DNA of 62,078 nt from a virus (taxonomy: Duplodnaviria; Caudoviricetes), in the IMG/VR virus record IMGVR_UViG_3300034104_006372, positions 1 through 62,078 of that record; one strand, 5' to 3'. A model generated the notes under the pieces. That model was not told the DNA's origin, searched no databases, and saw nothing but the letters and a program-made list of their open reading frames with translations. This document shows, piece after piece, positions 6,275 to 47,383 of the stretch. Position 1 is the first letter of the stretch. Every line of letters begins with the position of its first letter. The position numbers and the translations under genes are program-made.

Positions 6275-6294
6275 AATTTACTTTAAATTGTTAA

Positions 6295-9264: not shown

Positions 9265-9397
9265 TTGTCCTAAAATTTTGTTTAGTGAAATACGTTTATT
9301 AGATAGTAACGTAATAATATAAATTAAAAATATGGTGCTATATAGCGGGGATAGCACATTTACGATTATACGTATATTAGGATTTTTCAAAACGCGA

Positions 9398-9419
9398 AAA
9401 GCCCTCCAGAGAGGGCTTT
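9398..9419 (-). terminator. intrinsic terminator after the prohead protease gene
   Basis: AAAGCCCTC-TCTG-GAGGGCTTTT. Confidence 0.7.
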
Positions 9420-9477
9420 GGTCTTAGGAGACTATCCTAAGAGGGGCACATCCTTCGGTAGCGTCCGTTGGGGAGTA

Positions 9478-12100: not shown

Positions 12101-12953
12101 TTGCTTTTCTAATTTCTTGAACTAGTTCATAGTATTGCATTAAATCCACTAAATGATCATCATTAACTTTAGCAGTTTTGTCAAGCTCAACTAAATGTTT
12201 AGCTATTTCTTCAACTTTAATTTTGGTAGCTGGATCTTGGATTGTTTTAATGCTCTTGCTTAAATGTTCTTTTAGTTCAGCAATTTTAGTGTTGTAAAAT
12301 TCTCTTAAATGTGGGGCAGAGTCTACAGAATTGATAAATTCTTTTAAGATTTGTTTTTGTTCAATAGAAATAGAATCATATTTCTCGTTGAATTTCTCTA
12401 AAAGAATCTTGTATGTGAGAATTCTTAAATCTTTGTCGTATGCTTGAAATTCTTGTATTACGTTTTCTTTTGAATCTTGTGATTTAAGTTCCTGCTTGGT
12501 TAAAAATTCTAATAATGTAATTTTACAATCAACCATTTGAGCAGGAGCAACATAAGAAGCACCACTTACACCTTCAATCAACATATACAAAGAAGCTAGT
12601 TCTTTATAATTTTTAATTTTAATGTTAAAAAATGTATCTAAATCGTAGTGGGATTTAATTTCTTTGATTAGATTGTATTTCTGTCTCTTTAAAGTACTTT
12701 TATTTAAGTTAACAGAAGATTCTAAAATGGTACTAACGACAGTATTTGCTCTGCTTTCGTTTAATACTTTAGATTTTAGAATAGATTCATATAGTTTATA
12801 TTCTCTACCTAGTTCACTTTTGACAAAATATTTTTTCATAATGTCAATAGCGGGTGAATCTACTCCTTTTAAGGTATCTATAGTTACCTGTCTAACAAGT
12901 AACTCAAATAATATACCCGTGTTTTTGTATTTGCTGTGCTTGATTTTCATCAA
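12084..12953 (-). CDS. hypothetical head-module protein
   Basis: Helical ORF directly downstream of the portal gene, with a late motif. Confidence 0.7.
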   Translation of the reverse strand: MMKIKHSKYKNTGILFELLVRQVTIDTLKGVDSPAIDIMKKYFVKSELGREYKLYESILKSKVLNESRANTVVSTILESSVNLNKSTLKRQKYNLIKEIKSHYDLDTFFNIKIKNYKELASLYMLIEGVSGASYVAPAQMVDCKITLLEFLTKQELKSQDSKENVIQEFQAYDKDLRILTYKILLEKFNEKYDSISIEQKQILKEFINSVDSAPHLREFYNTKIAELKEHLSKSIKTIQDPATKIKVEEIAKHLVELDKTAKVNDDHLVDLMQYYELVQEIRKANGVQI

Positions 12954-12968
12954 AGAAATATATTTATT

Positions 12969-12976
12969 TATAAATA
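12969..12976 (-). promoter_or_regulatory. putative late promoter TATTTATA
   Basis: Recurrent motif. Confidence 0.65.
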
Positions 12977-12987
12977 TTAAAGAAATC

Positions 12988-14889: not shown

Positions 14890-14904
14890 ATTGTTAATTA
14901 TTGT

Positions 14905-14912
14905 TATAAATA
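14905..14912 (-). promoter_or_regulatory. putative late promoter TATTTATA
   Basis: Recurrent motif upstream of the portal gene. Confidence 0.65.
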
Positions 14913-14915
14913 TTG

Positions 14916-16490
14916 TTAAAATAGCCAGCTTATATCTTCTTTCCCACCATGTTGGTTTTCAATATAGTATGGGTTATCATTTTTGTTGGCATAATATGCC
15001 CCTTGATATGAAGTTCTATTAACTGTTATGTTGTTTAATGCGCTGCGTGTTAAATCTAATCCTCTTTGTCTATATTTCAAAGCTGTATCTCGAATATACA
15101 TTGCTATTCCAAAAGCCATTACTAAGTCATCGTTATAGCCTTGTTGTGCTTCTGCTCTACCATTTTTCCAGATAAATACTTTCATTTCCTCTATTAATCT
15201 TTTTGATTGAATAGTTACAGATTTTTCGGAAATATATTCTTGGAACTTACCTACCACCATAGGGCGGGTACGAGCTGACATTGTAAATCCTGCTACTGCT
15301 TTTGACGTATCCATATATTTGTCAAAATACGAATCAGCATTTGACTCGGCACGGGGAGAATAATAGAGATTGGAATAATTTCTATCTATTGCTACTTGTA
15401 TAGTTGCCCACCCAATATTAGCATTTTCTATCACTAGTAATGCTTCATTATATTCTGTAGCTATACCTACTAGCAAATGTCCAAATTCTTTAGTTCCAAT
15501 TTGACCTTTATATTCGGCTACCTGTACGTTCGATTCTACATCTATAACGTGGAATGTAGAGTAATCTTTACCATCACCACGAGCTACGTCAGCTACTACT
15601 ATATAACTTCGAGTATAATCTGGTGATTCCCATACCCACAGATTTTGGTCTGCACCTCGTTTTTCTAGTGGTTCTTTAATGTATGTTTTTTCGTAGTATT
15701 CTAAATATTCATTATAGAACACAATATCCCCAGAGGTAGAAAAATCACAGTCACATTCTTGGGCTGCTAATCTAGGATCACCTAACAGTTCATCTTGTCT
15801 ATCTCTCCATGTTTGGTCTCGTTCTGGATGGACCATCCATGGTAATTTAATAGGAATAAAATCGTTTTCTGCAGATTCTGCTTTAACCCATGTTTGATGG
15901 AACCAGTTACCAGTGCCAAAAGGGGTAGATAATACAATAGCACCACCACCCGTTGCTAGGGTTTGTTGAGCGGAAGCCCATGTTTCACCAATATTTTCGA
16001 TGAAGGCTGCCTCATCTATTATTAGCAAAGATACTGCTTCTGATCGTGCGGAATCGGAATTTGAAGATTTAGCTTGTATTTTAGATCCATTAACTAAATG
16101 TAGTGACAGTTTATTGTTTTCTACTGCATCTACTTTTAACCATGATGGTAAATTTTCCCACATGAATTTTACCTTAGATACTATATTACGAGCGGTTGCT
16201 TGAGTAGTTGCTAGAGCTAGTACGTTTTTATCTTTATGAAAAAGCATTAACCACGTAGCATATCCTGCAGCTAAAGTAGAAATACCTAGCTGACGGGATT
16301 TTAGTAGAATAGTGTAGTCGTGTTTTTTAAATAGGGTAAGTACCTTTTCCTGGAATGGATATAGGTTAAATTGTATTCTACCCCTTTGTGGGTGTTGGAT
16401 ATAACAATATTTGCGCATAAAGTGAACCGGATCTTGGGAACACTTTATATATTCTTGTTTTATTATCTCCTTTATATTAGGATTGGACAT
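14916..16490 (-). CDS. terL: terminase large subunit (T4 gp17-like)
   Basis: KSRQLGIST Walker A, LLIIDEAAF Walker B, ADVARG..DYS and DDLVMA nuclease motifs. Confidence 0.95.
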   Translation of the reverse strand: MSNPNIKEIIKQEYIKCSQDPVHFMRKYCYIQHPQRGRIQFNLYPFQEKVLTLFKKHDYTILLKSRQLGISTLAAGYATWLMLFHKDKNVLALATTQATARNIVSKVKFMWENLPSWLKVDAVENNKLSLHLVNGSKIQAKSSNSDSARSEAVSLLIIDEAAFIENIGETWASAQQTLATGGGAIVLSTPFGTGNWFHQTWVKAESAENDFIPIKLPWMVHPERDQTWRDRQDELLGDPRLAAQECDCDFSTSGDIVFYNEYLEYYEKTYIKEPLEKRGADQNLWVWESPDYTRSYIVVADVARGDGKDYSTFHVIDVESNVQVAEYKGQIGTKEFGHLLVGIATEYNEALLVIENANIGWATIQVAIDRNYSNLYYSPRAESNADSYFDKYMDTSKAVAGFTMSARTRPMVVGKFQEYISEKSVTIQSKRLIEEMKVFIWKNGRAEAQQGYNDDLVMAFGIAMYIRDTALKYRQRGLDLTRSALNNITVNRTSYQGAYYANKNDNPYYIENQHGGKEDISWLF

Positions 16491-17689: not shown

Positions 17690-18220
17690 TTAGGGATTAA
17701 TAACATTCAGAATCTGCTGTATTCGTTCCTCTGTTGAACCACTGATAGTGTGAGCAGATTTAAGTTTATAAGAATATGATTGCAATAAGTTTTGTATACT
17801 TACATCAATAAGATGTCTATATGTTGAATTAGTTTCACGCACACCATTATCCTCTATTGGTAATCCTTCAGAAGAAATATAAAATATGTAATCATATTCT
17901 CCCAAGAAACTAGATGCATATTGTTCGTATTTATCTTTATCTAAAACATTAATAGATTGAGCATTAGCTGTAAATGCCATAACATCTATAATAGTACGAT
18001 CTGTAATTAGATTATCATGCATTAATTCAGCACAACGTTCCGCCAAAAACACTGTTTGACCTTTTAATGTAGAATCCGTATTTAATGGAATACCTAAATC
18101 TCTTAAATATTTTGAACGTTCAGTAGCAAATTTATATTTTTTAAATTGTGGGAGTTTTTGTAAAGCATTTACCAATGTAGTTTTTCCTACACTCATTGTT
18201 CCTGTCAATCCTATCTTCAT
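17690..18220 (-). CDS. P-loop nucleoside/nucleotide kinase (NadR/Ttd14 AAA_28-like)
   Basis: GTMSVGKTT, ITDRTIID, YDYIFY, EDNGVR motifs. Confidence 0.75.
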   Translation of the reverse strand: MKIGLTGTMSVGKTTLVNALQKLPQFKKYKFATERSKYLRDLGIPLNTDSTLKGQTVFLAERCAELMHDNLITDRTIIDVMAFTANAQSINVLDKDKYEQYASSFLGEYDYIFYISSEGLPIEDNGVRETNSTYRHLIDVSIQNLLQSYSYKLKSAHTISGSTEERIQQILNVINP

Positions 18221-18224
18221 ATTC

Positions 18225-18644
18225 TTATTTGTTTAATAGCCAACTTGATGATTGAACTTTAGCTCCCAATCCATCAATTAATTCTATTTCATTATCAACG
18301 CAAACCTGTGTTTCTGGAATGGTATCATTGTTTTGATCACCCCCATTTGCAAATGCAAGTCTATATTCTCCCCCGTAAATGTCCGAAAGATATTTCAGGG
18401 TAGCACATTGTGTTTTGTCTTTATCTATAGAAATCATACAATTATCTACAATCCTTAAATTACGGATGATCATCAAACGTTCAAGTTCGTCTTGAAATTC
18501 TTTAGATCCCTTTAGTTCCCGTTGGTGATCAGAGTTAATAATCACAAATAGTTTGTGATTATAACCTTTTGCTCTGTGGAAAAGTTCAAGATGACCTTTA
18601 TGGAGCGGGTTAAAATACCCGCTCACTATAACCATTTTTTTCAT
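18225..18644 (-). CDS. HxGH cytidylyl/adenylyltransferase (TagD/RfaE-II-like)
   Basis: SGYFNPLHKGH, NGGD, QSSS motifs. Confidence 0.85.
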   Translation of the reverse strand: MKKMVIVSGYFNPLHKGHLELFHRAKGYNHKLFVIINSDHQRELKGSKEFQDELERLMIIRNLRIVDNCMISIDKDKTQCATLKYLSDIYGGEYRLAFANGGDQNNDTIPETQVCVDNEIELIDGLGAKVQSSSWLLNK

Positions 18645-29953: not shown

Positions 29954-30529
29954 CTACCTTTTAAGCGATTCTAAATATTTAACCACTTCTTCTACGCTAT
30001 TATTTACTAGTTCTACATTTATTTTACCTCTCCATTTTTCAACATCCCCGTCTTCGGAAACAAAAGAATTGTTGCTTTCGCTTAATTTTTCTTCAATCCA
30101 CAATTTATATTCAATAATTTTATTCTCTATTTCATTGTTATGGATTCTGTTTTCGTATTCTTCCCACTTGCCTTCTTTTCTTAGGTTTGCCTCCATATCA
30201 ATAACGCAGTTAAAACACATTTTATGTATGTTATAAAATGGTTTATCGTTACGATTTTTCATTACTTTGCTGCAAACTGGACATAACAAAGGCATTACAT
30301 GGTATTTTTTAGCTTTATCAAATTTAGTTACATTTTGTTTAATACCACCTTTAATAGTCCAAGTTCTACCATCTATTTCCCATATATCTCCTTCAGTATG
30401 AAATTCTTCTTTTTTGGAAAATCCAACGCTTGAACGTGATTTTTCTCCATACTTACCTTGTACAAGATTACGAAGACGTTGTACATCTTTTTCTTTAAAG
30501 TCTTTCTTTAAAACTGATTCTTTACTCAT
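29954..30529 (-). CDS. hypothetical protein with CxxC..CxxC zinc finger
   Basis: CPVC..CFNC. Confidence 0.7.
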   Translation of the reverse strand: MSKESVLKKDFKEKDVQRLRNLVQGKYGEKSRSSVGFSKKEEFHTEGDIWEIDGRTWTIKGGIKQNVTKFDKAKKYHVMPLLCPVCSKVMKNRNDKPFYNIHKMCFNCVIDMEANLRKEGKWEEYENRIHNNEIENKIIEYKLWIEEKLSESNNSFVSEDGDVEKWRGKINVELVNNSVEEVVKYLESLKR

Positions 30530-32532
30530 AAACCTAATTGTTTTAATTGTTTAATGGTATTAGCAGTATTGGTATGAAGTATACCTATACCACCTGCTGC
30601 TTTCCATTGGTCTATATTTTTTTGTCTATCATCTATTAAAATAGAAGTTGGAGAAGCATATTCCTGTTTTTGAGAGGCATATTTTAAAATAAGCTTTACA
30701 CCAGGTAATTCTCGCTTTACCCAAACTCTTTTACCTAATTTAGAGGATTCTTCGCGTGATGGGGCAGACAATAGTATTGGATTATATTTTTTAATATAGT
30801 CCCATAGTTGTTTTCCGTCTGACATCCATTGCAGCGTAATCCAAAATTTGGCTCCTGCTTTAGAAAGTGGATCCCAAAATGCTTCTACCCCGTTAGCATC
30901 TGCTTGTTGGCTAGTCATACCTGTTAATTCTTGGTATCCACGATCAAAATCAACTAATACACTATCCATATCACAGTATATTGTATATTCTGTTTCTTCT
31001 TCCCTTAAACGGGCTAATTCCATAGCGTATGCGTTTAAGCCAAATGGATCTTTAGATTTCTTTTCCCTTAAACTATCGGACCAATTTCTAAAAGTAATGT
31101 TACCTTCCTCGTATGCTTCTCTTTCAATACCTTCTAAATAATCATCCTCGTTTGTATTAGTAGTTTTAATATCTCCGGTTCCAATTCTACCCTCTAGATT
31201 TTGGATGTGGTGAATCATTTCATGAGAAAATGATCGTACTATATCTTTAGGATGGCGTCCTTCAGTATATAATACAATTTCCATAGTTTTGGGTTTGTAA
31301 TACGCAGTTTTGCCTAAAAATTGTTTAGCATTTTCTGCATCTCCATGTTTGAATATTACTTTAGGTAAAGGAACAATATTCATCCCTTTATCTATCATAT
31401 GTTGAGTTAGCTCTTTAATTTTTTGCTTTATATCTATGTGCTGTGAATATGAAGCATTTTCGTTTAAAGAGTTGGATTTAGGTATATTTAAATCCTTAGT
31501 ATTAAAATAAGTTTTTAAATCAATACCTTTATTTTTAGCATCTTTTAAATCAATAGTTTCAGGAACTATACCTTCTTCCCATTCAGTTTCAGGAGTTGCT
31601 AAAACAACATCACTATCATTTAAAATAATAGCCTTTATTTCAGGTACATTTCCTATTTTAAAGGCACCTAAACGGTGATTACCATCCACAACTAAATATT
31701 TTCCAGGTAATAGTGGGTGTTTTAAAGCCACAACTGGGGAGAATGATTCTATACCTTTTTCTTTAACAGACTTTATCATTTTTTCAATATAAGATTTTTT
31801 TTCTGTATTGAAATAATTAAAATCTTTACCGGGTTCATTTCCAATGCTATCGCTAACTTTTAAAACTTTTACTTCTCCTTTTGGATTTTCAGCAATATCA
31901 CTTCCTTGAAAATTTGGATATATAATAGTTTTATCAGAAGGTTGATCTAAATTTTCTTGCATTTTACCAGATACTATTTGGTATACTTCCTTTTTTTCTT
32001 CGGGTGTTAAAACACTAGGTAGAAAGGGTTCAAACTTTTCAAATGATACTTTAGAAGCATTTCTAGCAGCTGTACCTGATACTCCACCTTTAGTTATAAT
32101 AGTTCTAGCCTCAATATTTGGGTAGTTGGTTATAGATTTGGTACGTGAACCAATATCTGTAAAATCTTGTTCATTGTCTTCTCTAGCACCTAAAATCCAT
32201 AATATTTCTCTTGTGGGGTGATTTTTTGCAAAATCATATACTGCTTTAATTGGGGGTAAAGAACTAAGTTCTATTTTAACCTTAAATGGTAGATACTTGT
32301 TGTATATTTCCCAAATTAATAAAGATTCCTCTTGCGATACACCATCACGTTCTTTGGAACCTACAAAAATTATAAATTCATCTATTTCTGGGTTTTGCTT
32401 AAGTGCTTCTTGCACAACAGCAAAATGACCTGCTGTAGGGGGTTTAAATCCACCTGCATATAAGGCAGTGGTTTGTTTTTTTTCTTCCTCGGGTAAGAAG
32501 TTTTTAATTATTTCTTGTACTAATCTATTCAT
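30526..32532 (-). CDS. four-domain protein: HxGH-type nucleotidyltransferase + ParB/Srx + HExxH zincin + HAD 5'(3')-nucleotidase
   Basis: GGFKPPTAGH and SGTAAR; VVDGNHRL; SHEMIHH..EREAY; YCDMDSVL..LIDD. Confidence 0.75.
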   Translation of the reverse strand: MNRLVQEIIKNFLPEEEKKQTTALYAGGFKPPTAGHFAVVQEALKQNPEIDEFIIFVGSKERDGVSQEESLLIWEIYNKYLPFKVKIELSSLPPIKAVYDFAKNHPTREILWILGAREDNEQDFTDIGSRTKSITNYPNIEARTIITKGGVSGTAARNASKVSFEKFEPFLPSVLTPEEKKEVYQIVSGKMQENLDQPSDKTIIYPNFQGSDIAENPKGEVKVLKVSDSIGNEPGKDFNYFNTEKKSYIEKMIKSVKEKGIESFSPVVALKHPLLPGKYLVVDGNHRLGAFKIGNVPEIKAIILNDSDVVLATPETEWEEGIVPETIDLKDAKNKGIDLKTYFNTKDLNIPKSNSLNENASYSQHIDIKQKIKELTQHMIDKGMNIVPLPKVIFKHGDAENAKQFLGKTAYYKPKTMEIVLYTEGRHPKDIVRSFSHEMIHHIQNLEGRIGTGDIKTTNTNEDDYLEGIEREAYEEGNITFRNWSDSLREKKSKDPFGLNAYAMELARLREEETEYTIYCDMDSVLVDFDRGYQELTGMTSQQADANGVEAFWDPLSKAGAKFWITLQWMSDGKQLWDYIKKYNPILLSAPSREESSKLGKRVWVKRELPGVKLILKYASQKQEYASPTSILIDDRQKNIDQWKAAGGIGILHTNTANTIKQLKQLGL

Positions 32533-33332
32533 TTAGATAAGAATTGTTGTATTTTAGATTGTGCTTCTTCCTTAGAAACAGAATTGTTGATTATATTAGC
32601 TACCCCTTCGTCTTGCAGTAAAGTAGATACTTCTTGGCTTAATTGTTCTCTTGCTTTTTTAGCTCGAGCTTGCGCTTTAGGATTTTTTTCTTTAGTATCT
32701 TGTGGGGAAAATGGTTTAAGATATTTGTCTACAATAGATTCTAAATCTTTTAACTTTTCATCCTTTAAAGTATTAGATATAGATACAAAATTATTACCAA
32801 ACATTGATTTGTAAATATTATAATTTTTAGTTACCTCCGCCCAAGTACGTAATACAATAGCTGGGGCTAGACTTCTGTCGGTACCTCCAGATTTCTCAAA
32901 TCTATCTTGGTTTTGTTGCAATGCACGTTCTAAATCAGTATAAACGTATAACATAAATACTTCATACCCTGCATTTTCTAATTCGGATTTTAGCTCACTC
33001 GTTTGTTTAACAGATGAAGCTGTACCATCTAATATAAATGATTCTTGATTAGCTATAGCTTGTGGGATAGTTTCTTTCTTTAATTTAGAAGTTGCTTGAA
33101 CCATTGCTTGGGCAGCTGCACTTCTGTCCTCAGGACCAAGAGATTTTAAATCTAAAGAAATATTAGCCTGTTTTAGTAAGTCTATAAAGGTATTATCTAG
33201 ATTAAAGATTTTTAAACCACCTAAATCTAGACCCTTTAAAATAAATCCCTTCCCAGCTCCAGGAGCTCCAGCTAATATGATAGCTTTGGGGGTTCCTTGT
33301 ACTTCTTTTAACAGCTGCATTAAACTAATCAT
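32529..33332 (-). CDS. zeta-toxin/AAA_33-like P-loop kinase (likely start MISLMQLLKE at 33332)
   Basis: GAPGAGKG, ILDGT, GYEVFMLYV; late motif 14 nt upstream of the revised start. Confidence 0.75.
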   Translation of the reverse strand: MISLMQLLKEVQGTPKAIILAGAPGAGKGFILKGLDLGGLKIFNLDNTFIDLLKQANISLDLKSLGPEDRSAAAQAMVQATSKLKKETIPQAIANQESFILDGTASSVKQTSELKSELENAGYEVFMLYVYTDLERALQQNQDRFEKSGGTDRSLAPAIVLRTWAEVTKNYNIYKSMFGNNFVSISNTLKDEKLKDLESIVDKYLKPFSPQDTKEKNPKAQARAKKAREQLSQEVSTLLQDEGVANIINNSVSKEEAQSKIQQFLSK

Positions 33333-33346
33333 AAAAAGTAGTTTAT

Positions 33347-33354
33347 TATAAATA
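33347..33354 (-). promoter_or_regulatory. putative late promoter TATTTATA
   Basis: Recurrent motif. Confidence 0.65.
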
Positions 33355-33414
33355 TAACCTTTATTTAAAATTTGACGATATAAATATATGAAGGAACTTT
33401 CGTTCCTCCACATT

Positions 33415-35138: not shown

Positions 35139-35588
35139 TTAGGAAGACAAAAAATCCTTGGAGAAAAATTTTCCTAAAATATTGTTGTTAAACCAGTCAT
35201 TGGGGTGTTCCAAAACCTCGTATATGAATTGATATTTAACCTCAAAATACGTAAGCAATTTTTTATTATCAACTAATTTTAAAATAACTCGTTCAAACTC
35301 GTTGTGTTTACCTTCAGCTAGTAACTTTTTAATTTCTATTTCAGATCCATAATATGTTTTCCAATCTGATTCTTTAGTTACTATTTTGGTAGTAGATTTT
35401 CTACCTGGACCTGTTTGTGTAGCTATTTCCTTTTTTCCTAATTTAGTTTTTTTATTGTGGTAAAGTACTTTTTTACCAATATAGGATTTATTTGTAGGGG
35501 TATGTGTTACTATGTAAACAAAACCGTACGTGTTTTCTGGAAATTGAGAAATATCCTCAATTGTACTACCTTTATATAACCAATTCAT
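35139..35588 (-). CDS. GIY-YIG family nuclease-like protein
   Basis: GFVYIV..SYIGKK, YYGS, FNNNI. Confidence 0.7.
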   Translation of the reverse strand: MNWLYKGSTIEDISQFPENTYGFVYIVTHTPTNKSYIGKKVLYHNKKTKLGKKEIATQTGPGRKSTTKIVTKESDWKTYYGSEIEIKKLLAEGKHNEFERVILKLVDNKKLLTYFEVKYQFIYEVLEHPNDWFNNNILGKFFSKDFLSS

Positions 35589-35594: not shown

Positions 35595-35924
35595 TTATTT
35601 ATCAAAGTTTACTAATATTGTAGTATCTGTAGTACGAGAGGTAGGTAATGGTTTAGCTAGTTTAGCTACTGCTAATAAATTATAAGAATTATCATATAAA
35701 CCTACTGTTGTAACATAAGGTGCAAAGAAAGAACCTGTTGCAAAATCGTACAATTGTCCTTCACTACCTGAAATTAGGGATGGGTTTAGGGAATAATTAA
35801 ATTCATCTGCTCCAATAGTACATTTATATTGTGTTTCATATAACGTATATGAACTTGAGAATGAACAAGTTACATTAGAACCGGTTACAAATGCTAATAT
35901 AAAATCCGTGTGTAATGAAGGCAT
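35595..35924 (-). CDS. C-terminal half of a split baseplate/tail structural protein
   Basis: EFNYSLNPS..TTVGLY..LLAVAKL matches the C-terminus of paralog 38835..39854. Confidence 0.75.
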   Translation of the reverse strand: MPSLHTDFILAFVTGSNVTCSFSSSYTLYETQYKCTIGADEFNYSLNPSLISGSEGQLYDFATGSFFAPYVTTVGLYDNSYNLLAVAKLAKPLPTSRTTDTTILVNFDK

Positions 35925-35939
35925 TATTTAATATATTTG

Positions 35940-36551
35940 TTATAAATATTTATCTAAATGATCTTTCCATAAAAATTTAGTTACGGGCGTATTATAATTA
36001 TCTTGATAAAAATACAGTCCATCTTTAGGAGTTAGATAAATATATTCTTTACTATGCATAGCAATAATAATATCGCAAAATTCGCTAGATTGAAGGGATT
36101 GATTTAAAAAATTTAACATTAATTGGGCCGATTCTAAGCTAGGGATAAGACAAGGAGTTAAAGATAACATATAATAAGATCTATAAAAATGATCATTATA
36201 ATCTGTTATGTACATATTGGGTTTAATTCCCCCACAATCATATAAACTTCCCCCTAAAAATATAAAAGTAGCTTCTTCAGGTATATCAATAACCTCAGGT
36301 ATATTACTTATGGGTTTAATATCATCATCTAATGTTATAAATGGAAATATATCATTATTAATAGCTTGTTCCATTAATTTAATATGTCCTAAGGTTATTC
36401 GGTTTTGTCTTAAAGATGATTCGGCATTATTAAGAATTTGGGTATAAGGCACTCCCCAATTACTTAACATATTATCCATATTTATTTTTCTATCAGGATA
36501 ACCTTCATAGTTAAGATAATAAAAATGAATATCTTTGAAATTTACAACCAT
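35940..36551 (-). CDS. glycosyltransferase, GT25-like
   Basis: YYLN..RK..M, GH..L, ITLDDD, IFLGG pattern. Confidence 0.55.
   Translation of the reverse strand: MVVNFKDIHFYYLNYEGYPDRKINMDNMLSNWGVPYTQILNNAESSLRQNRITLGHIKLMEQAINNDIFPFITLDDDIKPISNIPEVIDIPEEATFIFLGGSLYDCGGIKPNMYITDYNDHFYRSYYMLSLTPCLIPSLESAQLMLNFLNQSLQSSEFCDIIIAMHSKEYIYLTPKDGLYFYQDNYNTPVTKFLWKDHLDKYL
35941..35948 (-). promoter_or_regulatory. putative late promoter TATTTATA for the C-terminal half-gene
   Basis: Recurrent motif overlapping the GT25-like stop codon. Confidence 0.55.
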
Positions 36552-37297
36552 ATAATGGTATTATTACTTATATTAAATAATTTATCTCTATTTTCTAATA
36601 AATTTTTCTTGTGTTCATTTATATCTAAATCTGAGCGTCTAGTTTCACCTATTCCTCCCTTATCGCTTATATCAAATGCAAATTGTTCACAGGGAACAGT
36701 ATAAGGAGGGTTATAATGAAAATATGTGTTAATATAACTTTCGTCATTTACTCCTGGTTCATATGGTATTTTTTTATCTTCTAGTTGCCACTCTCGAAGT
36801 GTAGTACAAAAATCAATTATTTTATCTTTTTTTCCACCAAAAAAGGCACCATAATGATAAGTATAGGGTAGAGGAGAATCATATGGCACATAAGCTTTGG
36901 ATTGGGGGAATCTATCAAACCCTTTGCCATCAGATAAAAATGATCTATTTCCAAAATGTTCACCTCCAACTAAATCACCTAAAAACCATTCTTCAGTAAA
37001 ATCCCTAGAAATATTAGTATCGGCATCAAAATAAAATAGATAATCACTTTTACAATTAGATAAACTAACTATATTTTTAAACTTTGAATTAGTACCATCT
37101 AACCAATTAGTATGAGAATCAAAATGATATTCTACATCAATATTATCAGATAGATATGGTTTAGGGTCTGTATCTGAAAAGAAATAGAATGTAATATTTT
37201 TATTTCCTTTATAATAATGAATAAATCTTTTTACAAACCTAATTCCTAAAACAAAATAAGCATTTGTTGCTATTACAACAATTCCTATATTAGACAT
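36542..37297 (-). CDS. GT6 (ABO/alpha-1,3-Gal-type) glycosyltransferase (likely start MSNIG at 37297)
   Basis: IGIVVIATNAY, DYLFYFDAD, YHYGAFFGG, NDESYIN motifs. Confidence 0.85.
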   Translation of the reverse strand: MSNIGIVVIATNAYFVLGIRFVKRFIHYYKGNKNITFYFFSDTDPKPYLSDNIDVEYHFDSHTNWLDGTNSKFKNIVSLSNCKSDYLFYFDADTNISRDFTEEWFLGDLVGGEHFGNRSFLSDGKGFDRFPQSKAYVPYDSPLPYTYHYGAFFGGKKDKIIDFCTTLREWQLEDKKIPYEPGVNDESYINTYFHYNPPYTVPCEQFAFDISDKGGIGETRRSDLDINEHKKNLLENRDKLFNISNNTIIWL

Positions 37298-38226
37298 GAT
37301 TTTTCTGCAGTTTTTTGAACCCAATCCCAATAGTGCCAATTAGCTACATTCTTTCCAGGTTCTGGGGAATTATTATATGGTAATTCATTTATATATTTTG
37401 CTTTATAAAATAATCCAGATGAGTCATCAGTTACTCCTGCATTATGCATGATATTCATTTTATGGTAATCTGCTTCAGAAGAGGTAGACCAGCTAAATTC
37501 AAAATTAGAGTGAGTAATTGTATTTTTACCCATTAACCATCCTTTCCAAAGAACAGCCCACATATCAGAACACCATATTTGAAGTTCGTGGTATTGGGGA
37601 TTTTCGGCTTTTTTTAGATTGTTTAGTTCAGTTATTTCTTTGAACATTTTATCGCATTTTACTTCTACCCAATTCCAGTATTCATATGATAAATCTTTCA
37701 TTAAATATTGGGCTCCGATACAATTAAGCTCGTTATCTTTAATTACTTGTTTATCTATTTCCATTATAGAACACATTTGTTCTAGTACATCTTCACCTTT
37801 AGATGTAATATAATTATGTGAAATATACCATCTTACATCTGATCCATACCAGTTATCATCTTGCAACATTTCATCTGTAATCCATTCTTTGGGTGGTTTG
37901 GTAAAGATAATGTCACAATCGTGATAAAAGATTGCATCATCTTGTAGATATGGATGTTGTTGAAAGTGTTGTTTTAGGATATTAGGGCGAATAGAAGAGA
38001 TATAGTGTTTATTTTCTCTTGTATCATCATAGAAAAAAAATCTTGCAGAATAGACACTAGCTAATTTTTTCCAATCCTCAGGAATAATGCCATCTATCTT
38101 CCAACACACAATATCTATATCGTTAGGATTTACACCCATAGATATAAAATTGTTTAACATAACTTCTATTTGCCATACATAATAGTTGTTAGCAGGTTGG
38201 GCGCAAACATAACGTAATTTTTTCAT
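37285..38226 (-). CDS. GT-A glycosyltransferase resembling peptide O-glycosyltransferases (HPAT/SGT, GT95/96-like)
   Basis: YYVWQ, YISSIRPNILKQHF, FYHDCDIIF (DxD), GAQYL, WCSDMWA. Confidence 0.55.
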   Translation of the reverse strand: MKKLRYVCAQPANNYYVWQIEVMLNNFISMGVNPNDIDIVCWKIDGIIPEDWKKLASVYSARFFFYDDTRENKHYISSIRPNILKQHFQQHPYLQDDAIFYHDCDIIFTKPPKEWITDEMLQDDNWYGSDVRWYISHNYITSKGEDVLEQMCSIMEIDKQVIKDNELNCIGAQYLMKDLSYEYWNWVEVKCDKMFKEITELNNLKKAENPQYHELQIWCSDMWAVLWKGWLMGKNTITHSNFEFSWSTSSEADYHKMNIMHNAGVTDDSSGLFYKAKYINELPYNNSPEPGKNVANWHYWDWVQKTAEKSCLI

Positions 38227-38253: not shown

Positions 38254-38829
38254 TTAATTAGTTATAACTACAATACCATGTTCATATATAATATTACCCA
38301 CGTAATTGGAACCAGATTTTATTCTACCTTCACCATCATCATATAAAGTACCACTTACTGGGCTTATTATTTTGAAGGAGTTAGGTCTGATATAGTCACC
38401 AAATAATTTAGTAGGAATAGATACAACCCCTATACTTTCAGTTGGGAATGTTTTTTGTGGATTTAAAGTGGTAGTCTCAAAGTTATCATATAAAGTATTA
38501 TATGTTTGAGATGAACCAGATGGAGGAGTAATAGTACCATCAGGATTAAAACTAGGAACTACAGCATTTGATACTTCGCCAAAACTACCTGAAATATAGT
38601 TAGTGTAATATAATTGTTTAGCTGAATTATATATTGTAACTTGGTATTCTTGGGTTACTTGGCCTGTAAGTGATTTATCGGTTAAAAAATTACTGTTTGT
38701 ACCTAAAAATCTATCTATACCTACATTAGAGGCAGTTAAAGCACTTGCCCCCTCAAAGTAAAAGTTTTTACTTACCTTGAGAGGGGATATTATTACATCT
38801 TGGGAATTTAATGTTTTGAAAACAGCCAT
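38254..38829 (-). CDS. N-terminal half of a split baseplate/tail structural protein
   Basis: IPTKLFGDYIRPNSF..DDGEG..GNIIYEHGIVVIT resembles the middle of paralog 38835..39854, then stops. Confidence 0.7.
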   Translation of the reverse strand: MAVFKTLNSQDVIISPLKVSKNFYFEGASALTASNVGIDRFLGTNSNFLTDKSLTGQVTQEYQVTIYNSAKQLYYTNYISGSFGEVSNAVVPSFNPDGTITPPSGSSQTYNTLYDNFETTTLNPQKTFPTESIGVVSIPTKLFGDYIRPNSFKIISPVSGTLYDDGEGRIKSGSNYVGNIIYEHGIVVITN

Positions 38830-38834: not shown

Positions 38835-39854
38835 TTAGAAATCTAACTTTACTCTAACTAGTGCTTCTTTGGTAAAATTCTTTTGAAGTGGTCTTGATAA
38901 TTTAGCTACAGCAAGTAATTCGTTAGCATCATTGTATAAACCTACAGTTGTAGGATAAACTTGGGGGCTATTAATAAAATATGGATAAATTACTTCGCCA
39001 GTTGATCCGGAAATGAAACTAGGATTAGTAGAATAGTTAAATTCAGCATTTCTAGATCTAACAAACACAAAATCTGAAGTAATTGTTTCTTCAGAATTTA
39101 ATTCAAATGAACTACCACTAACTAAAGTTTTATACAATTTTAATACATTTTGACCATCTGTATTAGGGGTTAGGTTAGTATTTAATCCAAGACCACCAGC
39201 AGATCCGGTTGAATCTAATGCTATACCGTTTAATAAAATTACAGAAGTATCAGGAAAAAATAAACCATAAGATCCAGAAGATGGAGTAAATCCTGTTCCT
39301 CCTAAAGAAAAATTATAGGGTAAACCACTAGATCCACTTACTACTTGATATGCTCTTTGTGTCCCATAATAAAGAGGAAGATTACCATTTTGGGAATTAT
39401 CCGTTAAAGATAGAGTAGTAGAACCATTTCTTAAAACAAGATTTAAAGAACCAGGTAATAATTTTTCTTTGTATCTTGCTCTAGATACATTTATTGCATA
39501 AAAATAACTACTAGTTACACTACCAAATAAAAATTGAGAATTTTCATCTTCTAACATTAAACTTCTATATTGCCCAAAAATAGTAGAAGAAGGAGATATT
39601 CCAGGAACTGATGCATTATAATACAAAGATCCACTTCCATATCTATTGCCATAGGCTATATCAAATTGTACTTCTGCACTTGGGTTAGTAGAGGCAGTTT
39701 GATAAATAGACAAATAATAATCTCCAGCTTGAGCAAATTGGGCAGTAGAATAATAAAATTCAGTTAATTCAGGGCTGTTACCTGACCATACCGTAGATGA
39801 TACAGCATCAGCACTTACTAAAAAATCTTCGGGGTCAAATCGTTTAAATCCCAT
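38835..39854 (-). CDS. baseplate/tail structural protein
   Basis: Context; EFNYSTNPS..TTVGLY..LLAVAKLSRP C-terminal domain. Confidence 0.7.
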   Translation of the reverse strand: MGFKRFDPEDFLVSADAVSSTVWSGNSPELTEFYYSTAQFAQAGDYYLSIYQTASTNPSAEVQFDIAYGNRYGSGSLYYNASVPGISPSSTIFGQYRSLMLEDENSQFLFGSVTSSYFYAINVSRARYKEKLLPGSLNLVLRNGSTTLSLTDNSQNGNLPLYYGTQRAYQVVSGSSGLPYNFSLGGTGFTPSSGSYGLFFPDTSVILLNGIALDSTGSAGGLGLNTNLTPNTDGQNVLKLYKTLVSGSSFELNSEETITSDFVFVRSRNAEFNYSTNPSFISGSTGEVIYPYFINSPQVYPTTVGLYNDANELLAVAKLSRPLQKNFTKEALVRVKLDF

Positions 39855-39862
39855 ATCTTATA

Positions 39863-40522
39863 TTAGGTTGTAGTTTTGTTAATTGTAACAGGAATTGTAA
39901 TTCTAGCTCCACTATCTAATCCTACTACAGTTAAAGTAGTTCTTAGTTGAGAATTAGTTCCAAATAATGTGTTAACTGTTGTAGCTCTTAAATTAAGTTG
40001 AGTTCCAATAACAGTTTTAGATACGTTAGTGCCAATAGTAGAAGTAGAATTTTGATCAATAGCAGTTTGTGTATTAATACCTAATCCTTCAAATGAAGAC
40101 ATTAATCTAACGTCTGCAATTGTAGCTACATATCCACTAGTTTCAAATGTAGAAACGTTGTCTAAATAATTTAGAGTTTGTGGAGTAATAGAAAGAGATG
40201 CACCTTGTTTTAAAGTAATAGCATCATATCCTAGATTCAAGATAGGGAGTTTAGCAGTACCTCTAGGTAAAGTAGCTAACTTATATTTCATAATTTGCTG
40301 ATCATCAGGGAATGCTTCAAGTAAAGGCATTCCTTCAATTGCTTCTCCATAAAAAGCAGATCCTGATGGGTGAGTAGGGTTATATAGAGTATAATCTATT
40401 TCATCATCAGAGAGAGCAAATTGTGTAATACGAAAAGAACCATCATTTCGAGCTAGGGCTTCTCTCCCTTTTTTAGTTAATATAGCATCAACTGTAATTA
40501 CGGTATTATTTAAATATCCCAT
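39863..40522 (-). CDS. baseplate/tail structural protein
   Basis: VDAILTKKGRE..ITQFALSDDEIDY; late motif upstream. Confidence 0.7.
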   Translation of the reverse strand: MGYLNNTVITVDAILTKKGREALARNDGSFRITQFALSDDEIDYTLYNPTHPSGSAFYGEAIEGMPLLEAFPDDQQIMKYKLATLPRGTAKLPILNLGYDAITLKQGASLSITPQTLNYLDNVSTFETSGYVATIADVRLMSSFEGLGINTQTAIDQNSTSTIGTNVSKTVIGTQLNLRATTVNTLFGTNSQLRTTLTVVGLDSGARITIPVTINKTTT

Positions 40523-40544
40523 TTTATTTAAGTATATATTTTGT

Positions 40545-40552
40545 TATAAATA
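40545..40552 (-). promoter_or_regulatory. putative late promoter TATTTATA
   Basis: Recurrent motif. Confidence 0.65.
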
Positions 40553-40555
40553 TGT

Positions 40556-43555: not shown

Positions 43556-46500
43556 TTAAGGGCCGCATCCACTTTGACCTGATACTATTTGGAGTGAAGC
43601 ATTAACTGTTTGTTGAGGAGAAGTTGTACCAGCTGCATTATCCCAAACCCAGAAATTACCAGATATTGGATCTACATATCTTTGATTAGTTAATGCAGGA
43701 GTAATTGTAGTATCAAATAAAGGATCTCCACCATTACATGGATTTAAAGTATAGTATAAAGTAGGAGCAATAGTAGTAGTAGTGGTTGTTGTTGTTGGGC
43801 CTGCAGTTGTAGTTGTTGTAGTTGTTGTGGTAGTTGGGGTAGGAATTGAACCTGATGTTATAGTATAGTCATCATCTGATCCACTAAAAAATTGTAATTG
43901 ATATACATAAAAATTATTAGGGTTAATTTTTAAAGTAGAAGCACACGGATCATCAGCATTACCTAATCCCCTCTGTAGTTTAACATAAGGATCTGATCCA
44001 CTAAATTCACCGTTATAAAATTCACGTTGATCATCTCTATCATAGGTTACTACACCTAATGTGGTAGAGAATGATTCATCCCAACTTTGAGTAACATTAT
44101 GTATATTGTCTACTGTAGTTGGGTAAAATTCAGTACCATTAAATTGATCAAGAGTACCACCTGTACCCCCACTAAATCTGTAGATAGAGGAACCACTTAT
44201 ATATTCATATTGACCTGTATCTCCAGATCCTGTATCGTATCCCCTAGAGAAGGGTTTAATTAAACCTTCAAGCAATTCATTACTTGAAGTAACTTGTGCT
44301 GGTCTTACTCTATTTCTTTCTAGTATGTGTTGTTTTACTACTACACCTGCAGATAAACTTGTTCTAGCAGGAGTGAAATCCTTGATCATTCTGAATAGTG
44401 AATTATCAAAGAATTTAATTAAACGAATAAAATCAACAACATCATAGCTGTGAATATATTTTTCAAAGTATGCATTTCTTAATCTATCTAGATCTGGATA
44501 GTTAACAGCTGAGGATGATATTTGTCTAGGATCACCAATGTAATCACCTAGATTGAAATTACCTAATTGGGCAATTATATCATCATTAATTTGATCTTGT
44601 GGAGAAAATGCTACTTCTAGATAGTTAACATCTTCAGAAAAACTACCAGATACATCAGAAGCTTGTTGTATAGATCTTAATGGAGATAAAACATTGATGT
44701 CAGTATTAGAACCAGATACATTAGCTGCTAATATATTAGATCTAATTTGTATTTTATCAGTTACTCTATCTTTAATACCAGATATAAGTTGATTTTCATT
44801 TATTATCTCCTTATTGGTAACAAAATTACTACTGCTTAAATAAAAATTACTATTAGAAGCAAATGAAGAAGTTATGTAAATTGTTGAACCCGATACTTTA
44901 GGGTGAATTGATTGTCTACTACCTGTATTAGATAAAGTGCCTAAATCTGCTCTAAATATTAATTCATTAGGAGAAGAATTAATTCCATTTCCTTCACTTG
45001 AATATGGGTTTAAAACATAATCATAAAATACACTAGCACTTAAATTAGGGATATAATACCTAATTTCTTGTAATGAACCAGAGAATGGTAAATAGGTATT
45101 TGAACCATATGTTATACTACTAGAGTTAGGAAATCTTATAACAGTTCCATTATTATAGTTAGTAGCACTATATCCAGTAACACTACTCGAAGATGTAAAT
45201 CCTAGTGTATTATTTATAGAATTAGCAACATGCAAACTAGCAGTAGTACCATTTTGAGTAGTCATTACAGACCACCATCCTTCGTTAAAGAATGGTAGGT
45301 ATATACTAGCACTTATAGAAGGAGAAGAAGAATCAGGTATAAATTTTAAAGTACCATACTCATTATAGGGATCTGGAATTGATCCTGAATATGAGCCACT
45401 AATTAGTTTTGAGCCTGTGTATTCTAATACTAATGAAGAATTACCATTATCTATAGACCATAATGATTGGGAAACTCTAGTTGGCAATCCCCCTGCATTA
45501 AATCTAAATTGGATGGTATTTGGTCTGCCACTATCAAAGTTTGGATTTGGAACAAATGAAGATGAGAAATGATACTTTCCTTCAGTATTAAAAGCATAAT
45601 TAAATTCACGTTGCTTTAAGTTTCTATCATCTAAAAAACCTATAATATTTCCACCAAATTCATTTATTCTTAATATTGTATCAGGGATACCATATGAGGT
45701 AACAAGTGCTCTTAAGCCCGCAATTGTACCTTTAGTTTTAAGTAAATATGGTAAATTATGGTATATTCTCTTATATAATCTTTTATTAGCATCATCTAAT
45801 GGTATAACATCACTAGAGGCAGATATTAAAGTATCAATGTACTCATACCCACTAGGAGTAGGTAATGTTGAAGTTTGATTAGGATAAGGGAATAAACTAC
45901 CTGAAGGAGTTATACCTAAAAAAGCAGTATATAAATCATTAATACTAAAATTATTAGCATATAATTTTACACCAAAATCTTTAATAGCATCTGCTACTAA
46001 ATCTTTAGATATACCATAATCTAATCTATTATCTGCTGAAAATTTATTTGTTACATCTTTAGTATAAGTCCAAATATTATCAAAATGTTGACCAATCATA
46101 TCTACAAATAGCAGATATTGATCATTATCAGGATCATCTCTTAAATATTCAGGTGTTGCCCAATATAACCAATCTTGATTATCTTGATCATAGTTTGAAG
46201 CAGATAATGCTAACCCACCATAATAAGGATTAGTAGTATTAGCACTACCTATCCAATTAAGAACCTGAGAACTTCCAGTAGAATATAAAGCATATGGGGG
46301 TTCTGAATTAGATTTAGGCCAAGAATATTGGGAACCACTATTATAGTATAAAAAATATTCGTAATTGTCAAAATTTTTAATTATATTTTGAATTGAAGCA
46401 GTTACAGTAGCTGTACTTGAAGTAGCAGCTATTAATTCTTGAGCTAAATTATTATACCCTTCAATTAAGCTAACTTTATAGTAAAAATTTTCTAGTCTAG

Positions 46501-47383
46501 TTTTAGCAGAAGAAAAATGAATAAATTCATTAAAATCTTCATAGTTAACATTAATCTTTAGTCCTTTTTCATTTAATAATGATTGAAGTTGATTATATGA
46601 ACTTGTAATATTGCTTGATAATAGAGTATCAAGTGAAAATTCTTGGTTAGTAGAACCAACTTCTTCTTTAATATTTAAGTTAAAGTTTGGACCTGAAAGA
46701 TATTGAAAGTCCTGTATTATAAATGGGGTAGTAGGAAATTGAACTTGATAAGCTTGGGAAGTAGATAACTGTTCTACTACCCAAACTTGAGACTTTAAAT
46801 TAAACTCTGATGGTAATGGTTCGTATAATTTGATTAATATAGTAGGATCACTAGCAATACTATTATCTAATTGTATATTATTAGCTATAACTAAATTATT
46901 TGACCCAAAATTAAGATAAAAATCAACAAAATAGGGGGAAGAATTTCGATATTGAACAAATGCATTAGTTGAAGATACAATATCTTCATTTGAAATTGTA
47001 GTAGAATCTAATCTAATTTCAGTTCTATCTGAGCTTATGCTTGAAATGTAGTAAAGACTAGAAATTGAAGAGGCTAATCTTTTTCTATAAAAATTATAGG
47101 ATATAAAATACACACCTTCATCAAATCCTAATCTTGATAGATCTTGATCAGGAGAAAGTAATACATTTCCATCTTTTATGGTATATGTTAATAATTCTTG
47201 TGTAGTACTAGGAAATATTAAATTTTGATTTTCGTCAAAAATAAAATATTCTATATAATCTATGGATTGAGAAAATACAGTATCTACCTCAAATTGAGCT
47301 ATAATATTAGTATCTTGAACCGAATAATCTTGCAGCTCAAAAGTAATTGGATCTACAGGTGTTATTAATATTTGTTCTTCCAT
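43556..47383 (-). CDS. large baseplate wedge-like structural protein with a C-terminal poly-Thr linker
   Basis: LPYLLKTKGTIAGLRAL..YGIP (wedge/tail protein I-like segment); FSGSLQEIRY LamG-like segment; PTPT10AGPT8. Confidence 0.7.
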   Translation of the reverse strand: MEEQILITPVDPITFELQDYSVQDTNIIAQFEVDTVFSQSIDYIEYFIFDENQNLIFPSTTQELLTYTIKDGNVLLSPDQDLSRLGFDEGVYFISYNFYRKRLASSISSLYYISSISSDRTEIRLDSTTISNEDIVSSTNAFVQYRNSSPYFVDFYLNFGSNNLVIANNIQLDNSIASDPTILIKLYEPLPSEFNLKSQVWVVEQLSTSQAYQVQFPTTPFIIQDFQYLSGPNFNLNIKEEVGSTNQEFSLDTLLSSNITSSYNQLQSLLNEKGLKINVNYEDFNEFIHFSSAKTRLENFYYKVSLIEGYNNLAQELIAATSSTATVTASIQNIIKNFDNYEYFLYYNSGSQYSWPKSNSEPPYALYSTGSSQVLNWIGSANTTNPYYGGLALSASNYDQDNQDWLYWATPEYLRDDPDNDQYLLFVDMIGQHFDNIWTYTKDVTNKFSADNRLDYGISKDLVADAIKDFGVKLYANNFSINDLYTAFLGITPSGSLFPYPNQTSTLPTPSGYEYIDTLISASSDVIPLDDANKRLYKRIYHNLPYLLKTKGTIAGLRALVTSYGIPDTILRINEFGGNIIGFLDDRNLKQREFNYAFNTEGKYHFSSSFVPNPNFDSGRPNTIQFRFNAGGLPTRVSQSLWSIDNGNSSLVLEYTGSKLISGSYSGSIPDPYNEYGTLKFIPDSSSPSISASIYLPFFNEGWWSVMTTQNGTTASLHVANSINNTLGFTSSSSVTGYSATNYNNGTVIRFPNSSSITYGSNTYLPFSGSLQEIRYYIPNLSASVFYDYVLNPYSSEGNGINSSPNELIFRADLGTLSNTGSRQSIHPKVSGSTIYITSSFASNSNFYLSSSNFVTNKEIINENQLISGIKDRVTDKIQIRSNILAANVSGSNTDINVLSPLRSIQQASDVSGSFSEDVNYLEVAFSPQDQINDDIIAQLGNFNLGDYIGDPRQISSSAVNYPDLDRLRNAYFEKYIHSYDVVDFIRLIKFFDNSLFRMIKDFTPARTSLSAGVVVKQHILERNRVRPAQVTSSNELLEGLIKPFSRGYDTGSGDTGQYEYISGSSIYRFSGGTGGTLDQFNGTEFYPTTVDNIHNVTQSWDESFSTTLGVVTYDRDDQREFYNGEFSGSDPYVKLQRGLGNADDPCASTLKINPNNFYVYQLQFFSGSDDDYTITSGSIPTPTTTTTTTTTTAGPTTTTTTTTIAPTLYYTLNPCNGGDPLFDTTITPALTNQRYVDPISGNFWVWDNAAGTTSPQQTVNASLQIVSGQSGCGP
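43761..43843 (-). repeat. Thr-codon tract (mucin-like PTPTTTTTTTTTTAGPTTTTTTTTIAPT)
   Basis: Mixed ACT/ACA/ACC codons. Confidence 0.9.

Follow-up and report, generated by a model that had tools for sequence, protein, structure and literature searches.

The IMG/VR virus record IMGVR_UViG_3300034104_006372 is a stretch of 62,078 bases (Duplodnaviria; Caudoviricetes) with an estimated completeness of 41%, and the whole of it is referred to here as the window. Its G+C content is ~31%, and its minus strand holds nearly all long open reading frames (ORFs). Pfam matches to a Gp23 capsid protein, Gp20 portal, prohead protease, T4-type terminase, gp25 baseplate wedge and PhoH mark it as part of a T4-like myovirus, and a PHROGs match adds a gp6-like wedge protein. 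We focus on a cassette of three glycosyltransferase genes in this window and on the phage protein family to which the product of its first gene, 313 amino acids (aa) long, belongs. Members of this family are recurrently encoded next to proteins with poly-threonine (poly-Thr) tracts, and this adjacency is the main new result. The cassette consists of the following genes:

37285..38226, minus strand: 313-aa GT-A glycosyltransferase, PHROG 4417; proposed initiating poly-Thr O-glycosyltransferase
36542..37297, minus strand: GT6 glycosyltransferase, 251 aa from ATG (TTG-extended ORF to 37339); DxD-type, minimal-domain phage clade
35940..36551, minus strand: 203-aa GT25-like GT-A glycosyltransferase, by fold and invariant acidic motif

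As ORFs, the three genes span 37285-38226 (313 aa), 36542-37339 (265 aa from the TTG) and 35940-36551 (203 aa). Stand-alone middle genes of relatives begin at an ATG equivalent to position 37297 and encode 249-257 aa, so that the middle gene is most likely 36542-37297 with 251 aa. The genes overlap by 13 and 10 nucleotides (nt). Their order recurs in seven closely syntenic contigs (L003-L009) and again in L011 and L013, two loci whose genomic background is unrelated and which are identical to each other across the aligned genes; one of them lies in a 330-kb contig. In two further loci (L016, L017) the GT6 and the 203-aa protein are fused. The recurring order and the fusions indicate that the cassette is real and not a chance run of ORFs, and they support the view that the three enzymes belong to one pathway. 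The initial annotation of this DNA, made from its letters, had proposed three overlapping, co-oriented glycosyltransferase genes here; the coordinates, the GT-A folds described below and the conserved order agree with it.

Folds and families of the three enzymes

The 313-aa protein belongs to PHROG 4417 (E 2.5e-58), a family labelled 'unknown function'. The family is large, with 2756 clusters at 90% identity and 816 representatives at 50%, all labelled hypothetical. The window protein has no Pfam match even at E <= 10 and no NCBIfam match. An AlphaFold (AF2) model built from 44 sequences has a pLDDT of 96.8 and shows a GT-A fold, as the initial annotation had anticipated. Its structural neighbours are LgtC (Z 14.7, root-mean-square deviation 3.7, 237 residues aligned), Skp1 alpha-galactosyltransferase (Z 14.3) and glycogenin (Z 14.2), followed by WbbM (Z 13.8), UGGT (Z 13.5), the GT8 entry 3tzt (Z 13.3) and GlyE (Z 12.9); XXYLT1 is also among the nearest folds. 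Residues D105, Q173, H261, G264 and K275 are invariant in the family and D103 nearly so, which gives, from the alignment, a DxD (D103xD105) and a His-x-x-Gly pattern. We therefore regard the protein as a predicted GT8/GT24-like glycosyltransferase, with high confidence for the GT-A fold.

Enzymes of these two families, such as LgtC, glycogenin, Skp1 alpha-galactosyltransferase, GlyE and UGGT, are the best matches across the whole model (Z 12.9-14.7), and several of them act on proteins or on protein-linked glycans. In contrast to them, the 313-aa protein is only ~10% identical, has an extended helical stretch inserted at residues 181-231 of its model and gives no match to Pfam GT8 (PF01501).

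A more specific assignment, to the HPAT/SGT peptide glycosyltransferases, had also been proposed in the initial annotation and was not confirmed. At E <= 0.001 the Pfam HPAT model (PF23452) matches 0 of the 44 aligned members (best E 0.23, in one of them) and 0 of 79 further representatives, and the window protein gives no match to it even at E <= 10. Fold searches with the model returned no chain titled HPAT or SGT among the matches, and the nearest solved folds are those of GT8 and GT24. Among the 30 nearest named Atlas hits, 19 fall in a set represented by a cluster in which 10% of the members bear PF23452.

The 203-aa protein has no Pfam match either, including none to GT25 (PF01755) at E <= 10, and a 31-sequence profile of its family found only chance matches among PDB sequences. 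Along the same lines, sequence and profile searches with both the 313-aa and the 203-aa families against PDB sequences gave none or chance matches only (TALE repeats, TRAF2). The AF2 model of the 203-aa protein (pLDDT 93) is closest to 9u7j (Z 14.9), Mimivirus R655 (Z 13.8) and human COLGALT1 (Z 13.8), and Foldseek gives its GT25-type matches E-values from 1e-5 to 8e-5. D76 and D77, within an acidic DDD motif, are invariant in the family. In addition, 24 of its 30 nearest named Atlas clusters lie in the set that carries Pfam GT25. These results bear out the earlier proposal that the protein is GT25-like, and we consider it a predicted GT25-like GT-A enzyme with high confidence for the GT-A fold. 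The GT25 family, which includes COLGALT1, R655 and bacterial lipooligosaccharide (LOS) beta-galactosyltransferases, thus provides its top folds (Z 13.8-14.9). It differs from these enzymes in lacking the Pfam GT25 match and in being far smaller than COLGALT1, and the margin over other GT-A folds is 1-2 Z.

The middle protein matches Pfam GT6 (PF03414) with an E-value of 4.4e-14, and its 52.4 bits exceed the cut-off of 25; the match to NCBIfam Gltr_6 has an E-value of 2.1e-19 but, at 70 bits, remains under the curated cut-off of 250. It aligns with Bacteroides ovatus BoGT6a (E 7e-11) and with the human ABO transferases (~5e-9). In these alignments its FDAD corresponds to FNAN in BoGT6a and VDVD in human ABO, its YHYGAFFGG to YYMGAFFGG and its NDES to HDES. 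The DAD and NDES motifs are kept in 12/12 sequences (the window and 11 relatives) and Y.YGAFFGG in 11/12. The GT6 identity, the DxD motif and the similarity of YxYGAFFGG to the human B transferase (GTB), all read from the letters earlier, are borne out by Pfam and by these alignments. In the ABO enzymes, the residues at GTB positions 266 and 268 are linked to the choice of donor sugar. The window protein has Tyr at 266 and Ala at 268, and the Ala hints at galactose (Gal) as a possible donor; that the product might be a blood-group- or alpha-Gal-like glycan is speculation.

The DxD motif itself is correctly identified but not new: a GT6 clade with a minimal domain and a DxD motif, represented by cyanophage P-SSM2, is described in passages of PMC3516806. 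According to the same passages, phage members of the clade lack the C-terminal membrane-binding domain of bacterial GT6, and PaGT6 of Parachlamydia, the one assayed member, is metal-dependent and transfers N-acetylgalactosamine (GalNAc) to the H antigen. This group, CAZy GT6 clade 1 (P-SSM2, marine metagenome homologues and PaGT6), resembles the window enzyme in its minimal catalytic domain, its DxD motif and the missing membrane-binding domain; P-SSM2 GT6 and the window protein are 30.5% identical by tblastn. PaGT6 transfers GalNAc, whereas the window enzyme with Ala 268 and Tyr 266 may use a different donor. Also, there is no fucosyltransferase in the window cassette, although one relative has a GT11 gene beside GT6.

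Poly-Thr proteins next to the 313-aa family

The neighbourhoods of 313-aa homologues were compared in a sample of viral contigs comprising the best 80 of 595 confirmed loci (49-78% identity), 77 of which have a usable ORF at position -1. An ORF was counted as poly-Thr if it contains at least 14 Thr within 20 residues. Such ORFs are found at the following positions relative to the 313 homologue:

Position -1: 54/77
Position -2: 13/72
Position +1: 0/78
Position +2: 0/75
Every other position: 7/788

All 55 of 55 upstream ORFs rich in serine and threonine (S/T-rich) lie on the strand of the 313 homologue, with a median gap of 20 nt. When the homologues are clustered at 70% identity, the resulting 29 clusters comprise 20 that are all-positive, eight that are all-negative, none that is mixed and one without an upstream ORF. 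In the seven close relatives of the cassette the ORF directly upstream of the 313 gene has S/T-rich tracts of ~40-100 residues, mainly Thr, in every case (7/7), and in other loci poly-Thr spans reach several hundred residues.

What kind of proteins are these neighbours? In locus L067 the protein at -1 starts with a Pfam tail-tube domain (residues 5-137) followed by poly-Thr-linked modules, and tail-fibre chaperone domains occur nearby in L060 and L067. This supports the view that the poly-Thr neighbours are probably virion proteins.

The same arrangement is observed in cultured phages. A tblastn search yielded 77 records with a 313 homologue, and among the seven examined the homologue directly follows a Thr-rich tail or tract protein in five. 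In Clostridium phage phiCTP1 it stands after the tail tube gene, whose product has a poly-Thr C-terminus (...TTTTTNAPITTTTTTV), and in Staphylococcus phage SA2 after the gene of a major tail protein ending in ...STTTTTTTTP. In Lactobacillus phage 521B it follows an Ig-domain protein with TTVKP repeats, and in Lactobacillus phage Semele and Chryseobacterium phage MA9V-3 poly-Thr proteins. As a side observation, an 87-aa ORF of almost pure Thr/Ser overlaps the 3' end of the SA2 major tail protein gene in another frame (L023 5117-5930), and may be a frameshift extension of the tail protein.

Within the phage group of the window, 80 loci were gathered with the 219-aa protein encoded near the cassette as query. 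S/T-rich ORFs occur in four of the six loci with a 313 homologue versus 3/74 without (Fisher p 3e-4, uncorrected for relatedness), and the two of the six that lack one do not extend over the gene of the following protein, which holds the only tract of the window:

43772..43834, minus strand: poly-Thr tract T10-AGP-T8, residues 1184-1204 of a 1275-aa baseplate-distal protein (gene 43556-47383)

Orthologues in L106 and L111, which are 90% identical, retain this tract, and it is likely the best acceptor candidate in the window. Orthologues of the 1275-aa protein carry a tract in 0/4 cassette relatives. This absence looks like a refutation, but the tracts of these relatives sit in the ORF adjoining the 313 gene.

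No report linking phage glycosyltransferases to poly-Thr structural proteins, and no description for phages of long poly-Thr tracts with a fixed gene adjacency, was found in the literature searched, which did not extend to Freeman et al. 2023. In a Lactobacillus phage paper, PMC6669764, a term search found no mention of glycosylation. PMC8402811 was set aside as support because it deals with host glycans and not with phage proteins.

Genomic setting and exchangeable partners

The cassette lies at the distal end of a baseplate/tail-fibre block, with a primase gene ~0.8 kb downstream. The closest cultured relative of the phage is Flavobacterium phage vB_FspM_immuto, whose homologues of the 219-aa and 339-aa proteins encoded upstream are 75% and 53% identical; blastn of the cassette region against cultured phages gave no match. 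The genes and motifs that frame the cassette are:

38254..38829, minus strand: 191-aa ORF directly upstream of the 313 gene
38835..40522, minus strand: 219-aa and 339-aa fibre-module genes with homologues in immuto; intergenic gaps of 5-27 nt
35595..35924, minus strand: 109-aa ORF directly downstream of the cassette; tblastn match to the C-terminal part of immuto gp105
40543..40553, minus strand: promoter-like motif ATATTTATAAC upstream of the 219-aa gene; the next copy only at 35949
35939..35949, minus strand: promoter-like motif ATATTTATAAC upstream of the 109-aa ORF, at the end of the 219-339-191-313-GT6-203 block

In immuto the homologues of the 219-aa and 339-aa proteins stand just before the tail fibre and tail spike genes, which occupy the interval between the 339-aa homologue and a GIY-YIG-like gene. 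The cassette in the window is thus found in the slot that holds tail fibre and tail spike genes in immuto. Immuto gp105 is homologous to the 191-aa ORF in its N-terminal part and to the 109-aa ORF in its C-terminal part, so that the cassette splits a fibre-like gene. A BLASTP match (E 4e-15, 49% identity across 71 aa) also relates the 109-aa ORF to the C-terminal domain of the 339-aa protein, and the 191-aa ORF is a homologue of the N-terminal ~190 aa of the relatives' poly-Thr proteins, the poly-Thr part missing in the window. Relatives keep both halves of the split gene in the same arrangement around the cassette. The loci compared for this split are window 38254-38829 and 35595-35924 and, for the single gene gp105, L019 14372-15445.

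A motif, ATATTTATAAY, has 12 copies in the window (1958-54761) where 1.05 are expected, all on the coding strand. The copies checked stand 15-20 nt ahead of start codons, among them the starts of the portal gene, of PhoH and of genes in the baseplate module (for example at 14903-14913, 40543-40553 and 35939-35949), and the motif is a candidate phage promoter or translation-start element. Around the cassette, copies precede only the 219-aa gene and the 109-aa ORF, so the six genes 219-339-191-313-GT6-203 look like one unit; we infer a transcription-unit-like block in which the cassette would be transcribed together with the 219-aa and 339-aa genes. The T4 late-promoter word TATAAATA is mildly enriched (31 versus 20 expected in the window) and was dropped as the window's recurrent promoter motif in favour of ATATTTATAAY. 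The earlier placement of the cassette inside a baseplate operon is roughly right: the cassette shares a block with fibre-like genes, and its site is the distal end of the baseplate/tail-fibre block.

Several other genes near the cassette or in its relatives deserve mention in their own right. Window 35139-35588 encodes a SegE-type GIY-YIG protein (Pfam E 1.3e-26; PHROG 447, labelled 'NAD synthetase'), which keeps its position in immuto and in dozens of relatives, a constancy not expected of a homing endonuclease that moves freely. Neighbouring genes for an AAA_28 (NadR-like kinase) and a cytidylyltransferase-like protein at 17690-18644 suggest NAD salvage rather than sugar activation. Among the replication genes lie a zeta-toxin/AAA_33-like kinase ORF (32529-33413) and, beside it, a 668-aa ORF (30526-32532) whose C-terminus matches 5'-3' deoxyribonucleotidase. 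In the 330-kb contig L013 the cassette is flanked by a 676-aa IPT/TIG-domain protein (5411-7441) and a 1191-aa collagen-repeat protein (12001-15576), and a GIY-YIG/NUMOD3 endonuclease gene is inserted between the GT6 and GT25-like genes (9237-9968). In L015 an intein with an HNH endonuclease domain interrupts the RecA gene (4698-6560).

Across the relatives the poly-Thr gene is constantly accompanied by the 313 gene, whose downstream neighbours differ even where the flanks are 97-99% identical. The 313 alleles of these relatives are 43% to 90% identical to the window protein. The downstream sets are:

GT6 and 203-aa gene: window, L003-L009, L100
GT6, then ORFs not matching the 203-aa protein: L103, L105
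Methyltransferase, GT32 and GT2: L101 by Pfam; L102 has ORFs of the same size
GT2 and an uncharacterised ORF: L109
None: L106, L107, L110, L111

In L106 and L111 the 313 homologue is flanked by ORFs of the 191-aa and 109-aa types alone. Longer 313 homologues (n=81) are fused to a similar range of partners:

GT2 with or without GT32: 22
GT6: 17
Radical SAM/SPASM: 17
No Pfam domain: 13
GT7C: 10
GT11: 1
FkbM methyltransferase: 1

A radical SAM/SPASM enzyme is also found as a separate gene directly downstream of a 313-type gene in L060 (8969-10003). A distant island, in the T4-like contig L016 (4445-10588), encodes a GT2, a methyltransferase, a GT2, a GT2/GT7C protein, an ORF without Pfam match, an FkbM methyltransferase, a GT11 and the GT6::GT25-like fusion. 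GT11 and GT6 are the enzyme pair for H and A/B-type antigens in other organisms.

A possible O-glycosylation module for virion proteins

We consider it probable, with room for doubt, that the cassette serves the phage to O-glycosylate its own tail or fibre proteins. It is the co-occurrence with poly-Thr tracts that favours O-glycosylation of virion proteins with the 313-aa enzyme acting first. In such a module the 313-aa enzyme, which would be soluble, GT8-like and probably retaining and metal-dependent, might act in the cytoplasm, either ahead of assembly or while it proceeds, and place the first sugar onto Thr residues in mucin-like poly-Thr tracts of structural proteins. Extension of the glycan may then fall to the 203-aa GT25-like enzyme (probably inverting, of the beta-Gal/Glc type), and the DxD-type GT6 (presumed retaining, of the alpha-1,3-Gal/GalNAc type) could extend or cap it. 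The likely acceptor in this phage would be the poly-Thr tract near the C-terminus of the 1275-aa protein, and in most relatives the protein encoded immediately upstream of the 313 gene. We infer this order of action, the acceptor, the sugars and the glycan on virions from the folds, motifs, gene order, fusions and poly-Thr statistics presented above.

The cassette might instead modify a host surface glycan, acting during infection on the host's lipopolysaccharide (LPS), capsule or glycoprotein precursors; this could, for example, prevent superinfection or keep progeny from sticking to debris. This is the usual reading of marine phage glycosyltransferase islands, and it fits both the position of the cassette in the host-recognition slot of the genome and the fact that characterised bacterial GT6 and GT25 enzymes make LPS or LOS structures; passages of PMC3516806 have BoGT6a and PaGT6 making A-type antigen, and a 2025 cyanophage paper, in the part concerned, places such genes under cell-wall synthesis or modification (PMC12801897). 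It leaves unexplained, however, why poly-Thr ORFs adjoin the 313 homologue in 54/77 loci as opposed to ~1% elsewhere, and why the gene sits in the head and tail modules of Firmicutes siphoviruses. Pfam scans of the window ORFs gave no flippase, ligase or sugar-activation match, and the phage GT6 clade, as described in PMC3516806, lacks the C-terminal membrane-binding domain. On balance we find action on the host surface unlikely.

Slightly less unlikely, and still improbable in our view, is that phage poly-Thr proteins are the target while the roles differ: the 313-aa enzyme could extend a sugar set by the GT25-like or a host enzyme, or the modified protein could be a non-virion one. The nearest folds of the 313-aa protein do include extenders of protein-linked glycans (XXYLT1, GlyE, Skp1 alpha-galactosyltransferase, UGGT), and GT25 includes COLGALT1, which acts directly on protein. 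Yet glycogenin, a close fold match, also glycosylates protein directly, and one poly-Thr neighbour has a tail-tube domain. Moreover, phages phiCTP1, SA2, 9183 and Planchet have no neighbour annotated as glycosyltransferase, L106 and L111 have only ORFs of the 191-aa and 109-aa types beside the homologue, and a 313 homologue standing alone would have to modify the acceptor directly if no host enzyme did the priming. Glycosylation of phage DNA at hydroxymethylated bases, of the kind known from T4 and from metavirome systems with 5-hydroxymethylcytosine (5hmC), we regard as a most improbable role for the enzymes. According to parts of a preprint (bioRxiv 10.1101/2023.12.21.572611), certain phage clusters use GT-A enzymes, GT8-like ones included, to attach a second sugar to 5hmC, and the cassette is followed closely by primase and exonuclease genes. 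Against this, Pfam scans of 68 ORFs of the window, which holds ~41% of the genome, gave no match for a thymidylate-synthase-like protein, TET/JBP or a C5-methyltransferase, and a 119-kb relative of 70% completeness likewise yielded none; a 330-kb contig has a ThyS-family gene ~47 kb from its cassette. Such a scheme also leaves the poly-Thr linkage unaccounted for.

The proposal of a virion O-glycosylation module has to be held against a number of observations that weaken it. The link with poly-Thr tracts, raised in the initial annotation as a matter of co-occurrence, turned out strongly positive for the 313 family, but the adjacent 191-aa ORF of the window itself has no tract, and the only one in the window is five genes upstream. 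The 80 sampled loci are closest relatives, all from aquatic viral contigs and mutually non-independent. In 22/77 loci (8/28 clusters) an S/T-rich ORF at -1 is missing, some of these in non-structural neighbourhoods. In Enterococcus phages 9183 and Planchet the homologue follows a capsid gene without a Thr tail, and a relative of 100% completeness lacks a 313 homologue although its fibre proteins are weakly S/T-rich (14 of 20). The radical SAM/SPASM fusions (P0316-P0342), 17 of the 81, are not accounted for by the proposal. The placement of the 313-aa enzyme as first-acting is drawn from the constancy of its gene alone, and the direct action of GT25 enzymes such as COLGALT1 on protein speaks against it; support for the whole family is comparative. 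As to expression, a sigma-70 promoter scan, run with a terminator scan, was uninformative (48 sites versus 55.9 expected).

The 313 family ranges over aquatic T4-like myoviruses, jumbo phages, Firmicutes siphoviruses and herelleviruses. A wider proposal, whose chances we see as evenly balanced, is that PHROG 4417 comprises unrecognised and very widespread phage polypeptide Thr O-glycosyltransferases that start mucin-type glycans on the poly-Thr tracts of tail-tube, fibre and decoration proteins, with swappable downstream transferases giving rise to 'virion glycotypes'. Since these transferases are swappable, related phages would carry different virion glycans, and if so, GT11 and GT6 pairs could build histo-blood-group-like epitopes. 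The rule that a 313 gene follows a poly-Thr structural protein would give a function to a large hypothetical family, and it can be tested in cultured carriers, namely Clostridium phage phiCTP1, Staphylococcus SA2-type phages, Lactobacillus phages Semele and 521B and Chryseobacterium phage MA9V-3. If it holds, phage tails would commonly bear mucin-like glycan coats, with consequences for host recognition, particle stability, stickiness in water or mucus and the immune recognition of therapeutic phages, and the family would offer new enzymes for peptide O-glycosylation.

How does this compare with known systems? To our knowledge, phage-encoded virion glycosylation is experimentally documented mainly in mycobacteriophages. 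Work by Freeman et al. 2023 (Cell Host Microbe) reportedly found that phage-encoded glycosyltransferases of these phages place glycans at the C-termini of capsid and tail-tube subunits. The 313 family shows a similar picture in that Thr-rich C-terminal tails on tail-tube or major tail proteins adjoin its gene; it differs in its carriers, which are aquatic Bacteroidota-type and Firmicutes phages. Virion glycosylation of mycobacteriophages is also mentioned in a passage of PMC12619734, while marine phage glycosyltransferase islands are read as host cell-wall or DNA modification in parts of PMC12801897. A further parallel is offered by Chlorovirus PBCV-1 and Mimivirus. These are eukaryotic giant viruses in which the acceptor is no poly-Thr tract, but they likewise encode soluble GT-A enzymes for their structural proteins, and PBCV-1 A64R is a fold match of both the 313-aa (Z 10.9) and the 203-aa protein (Z 12.2).

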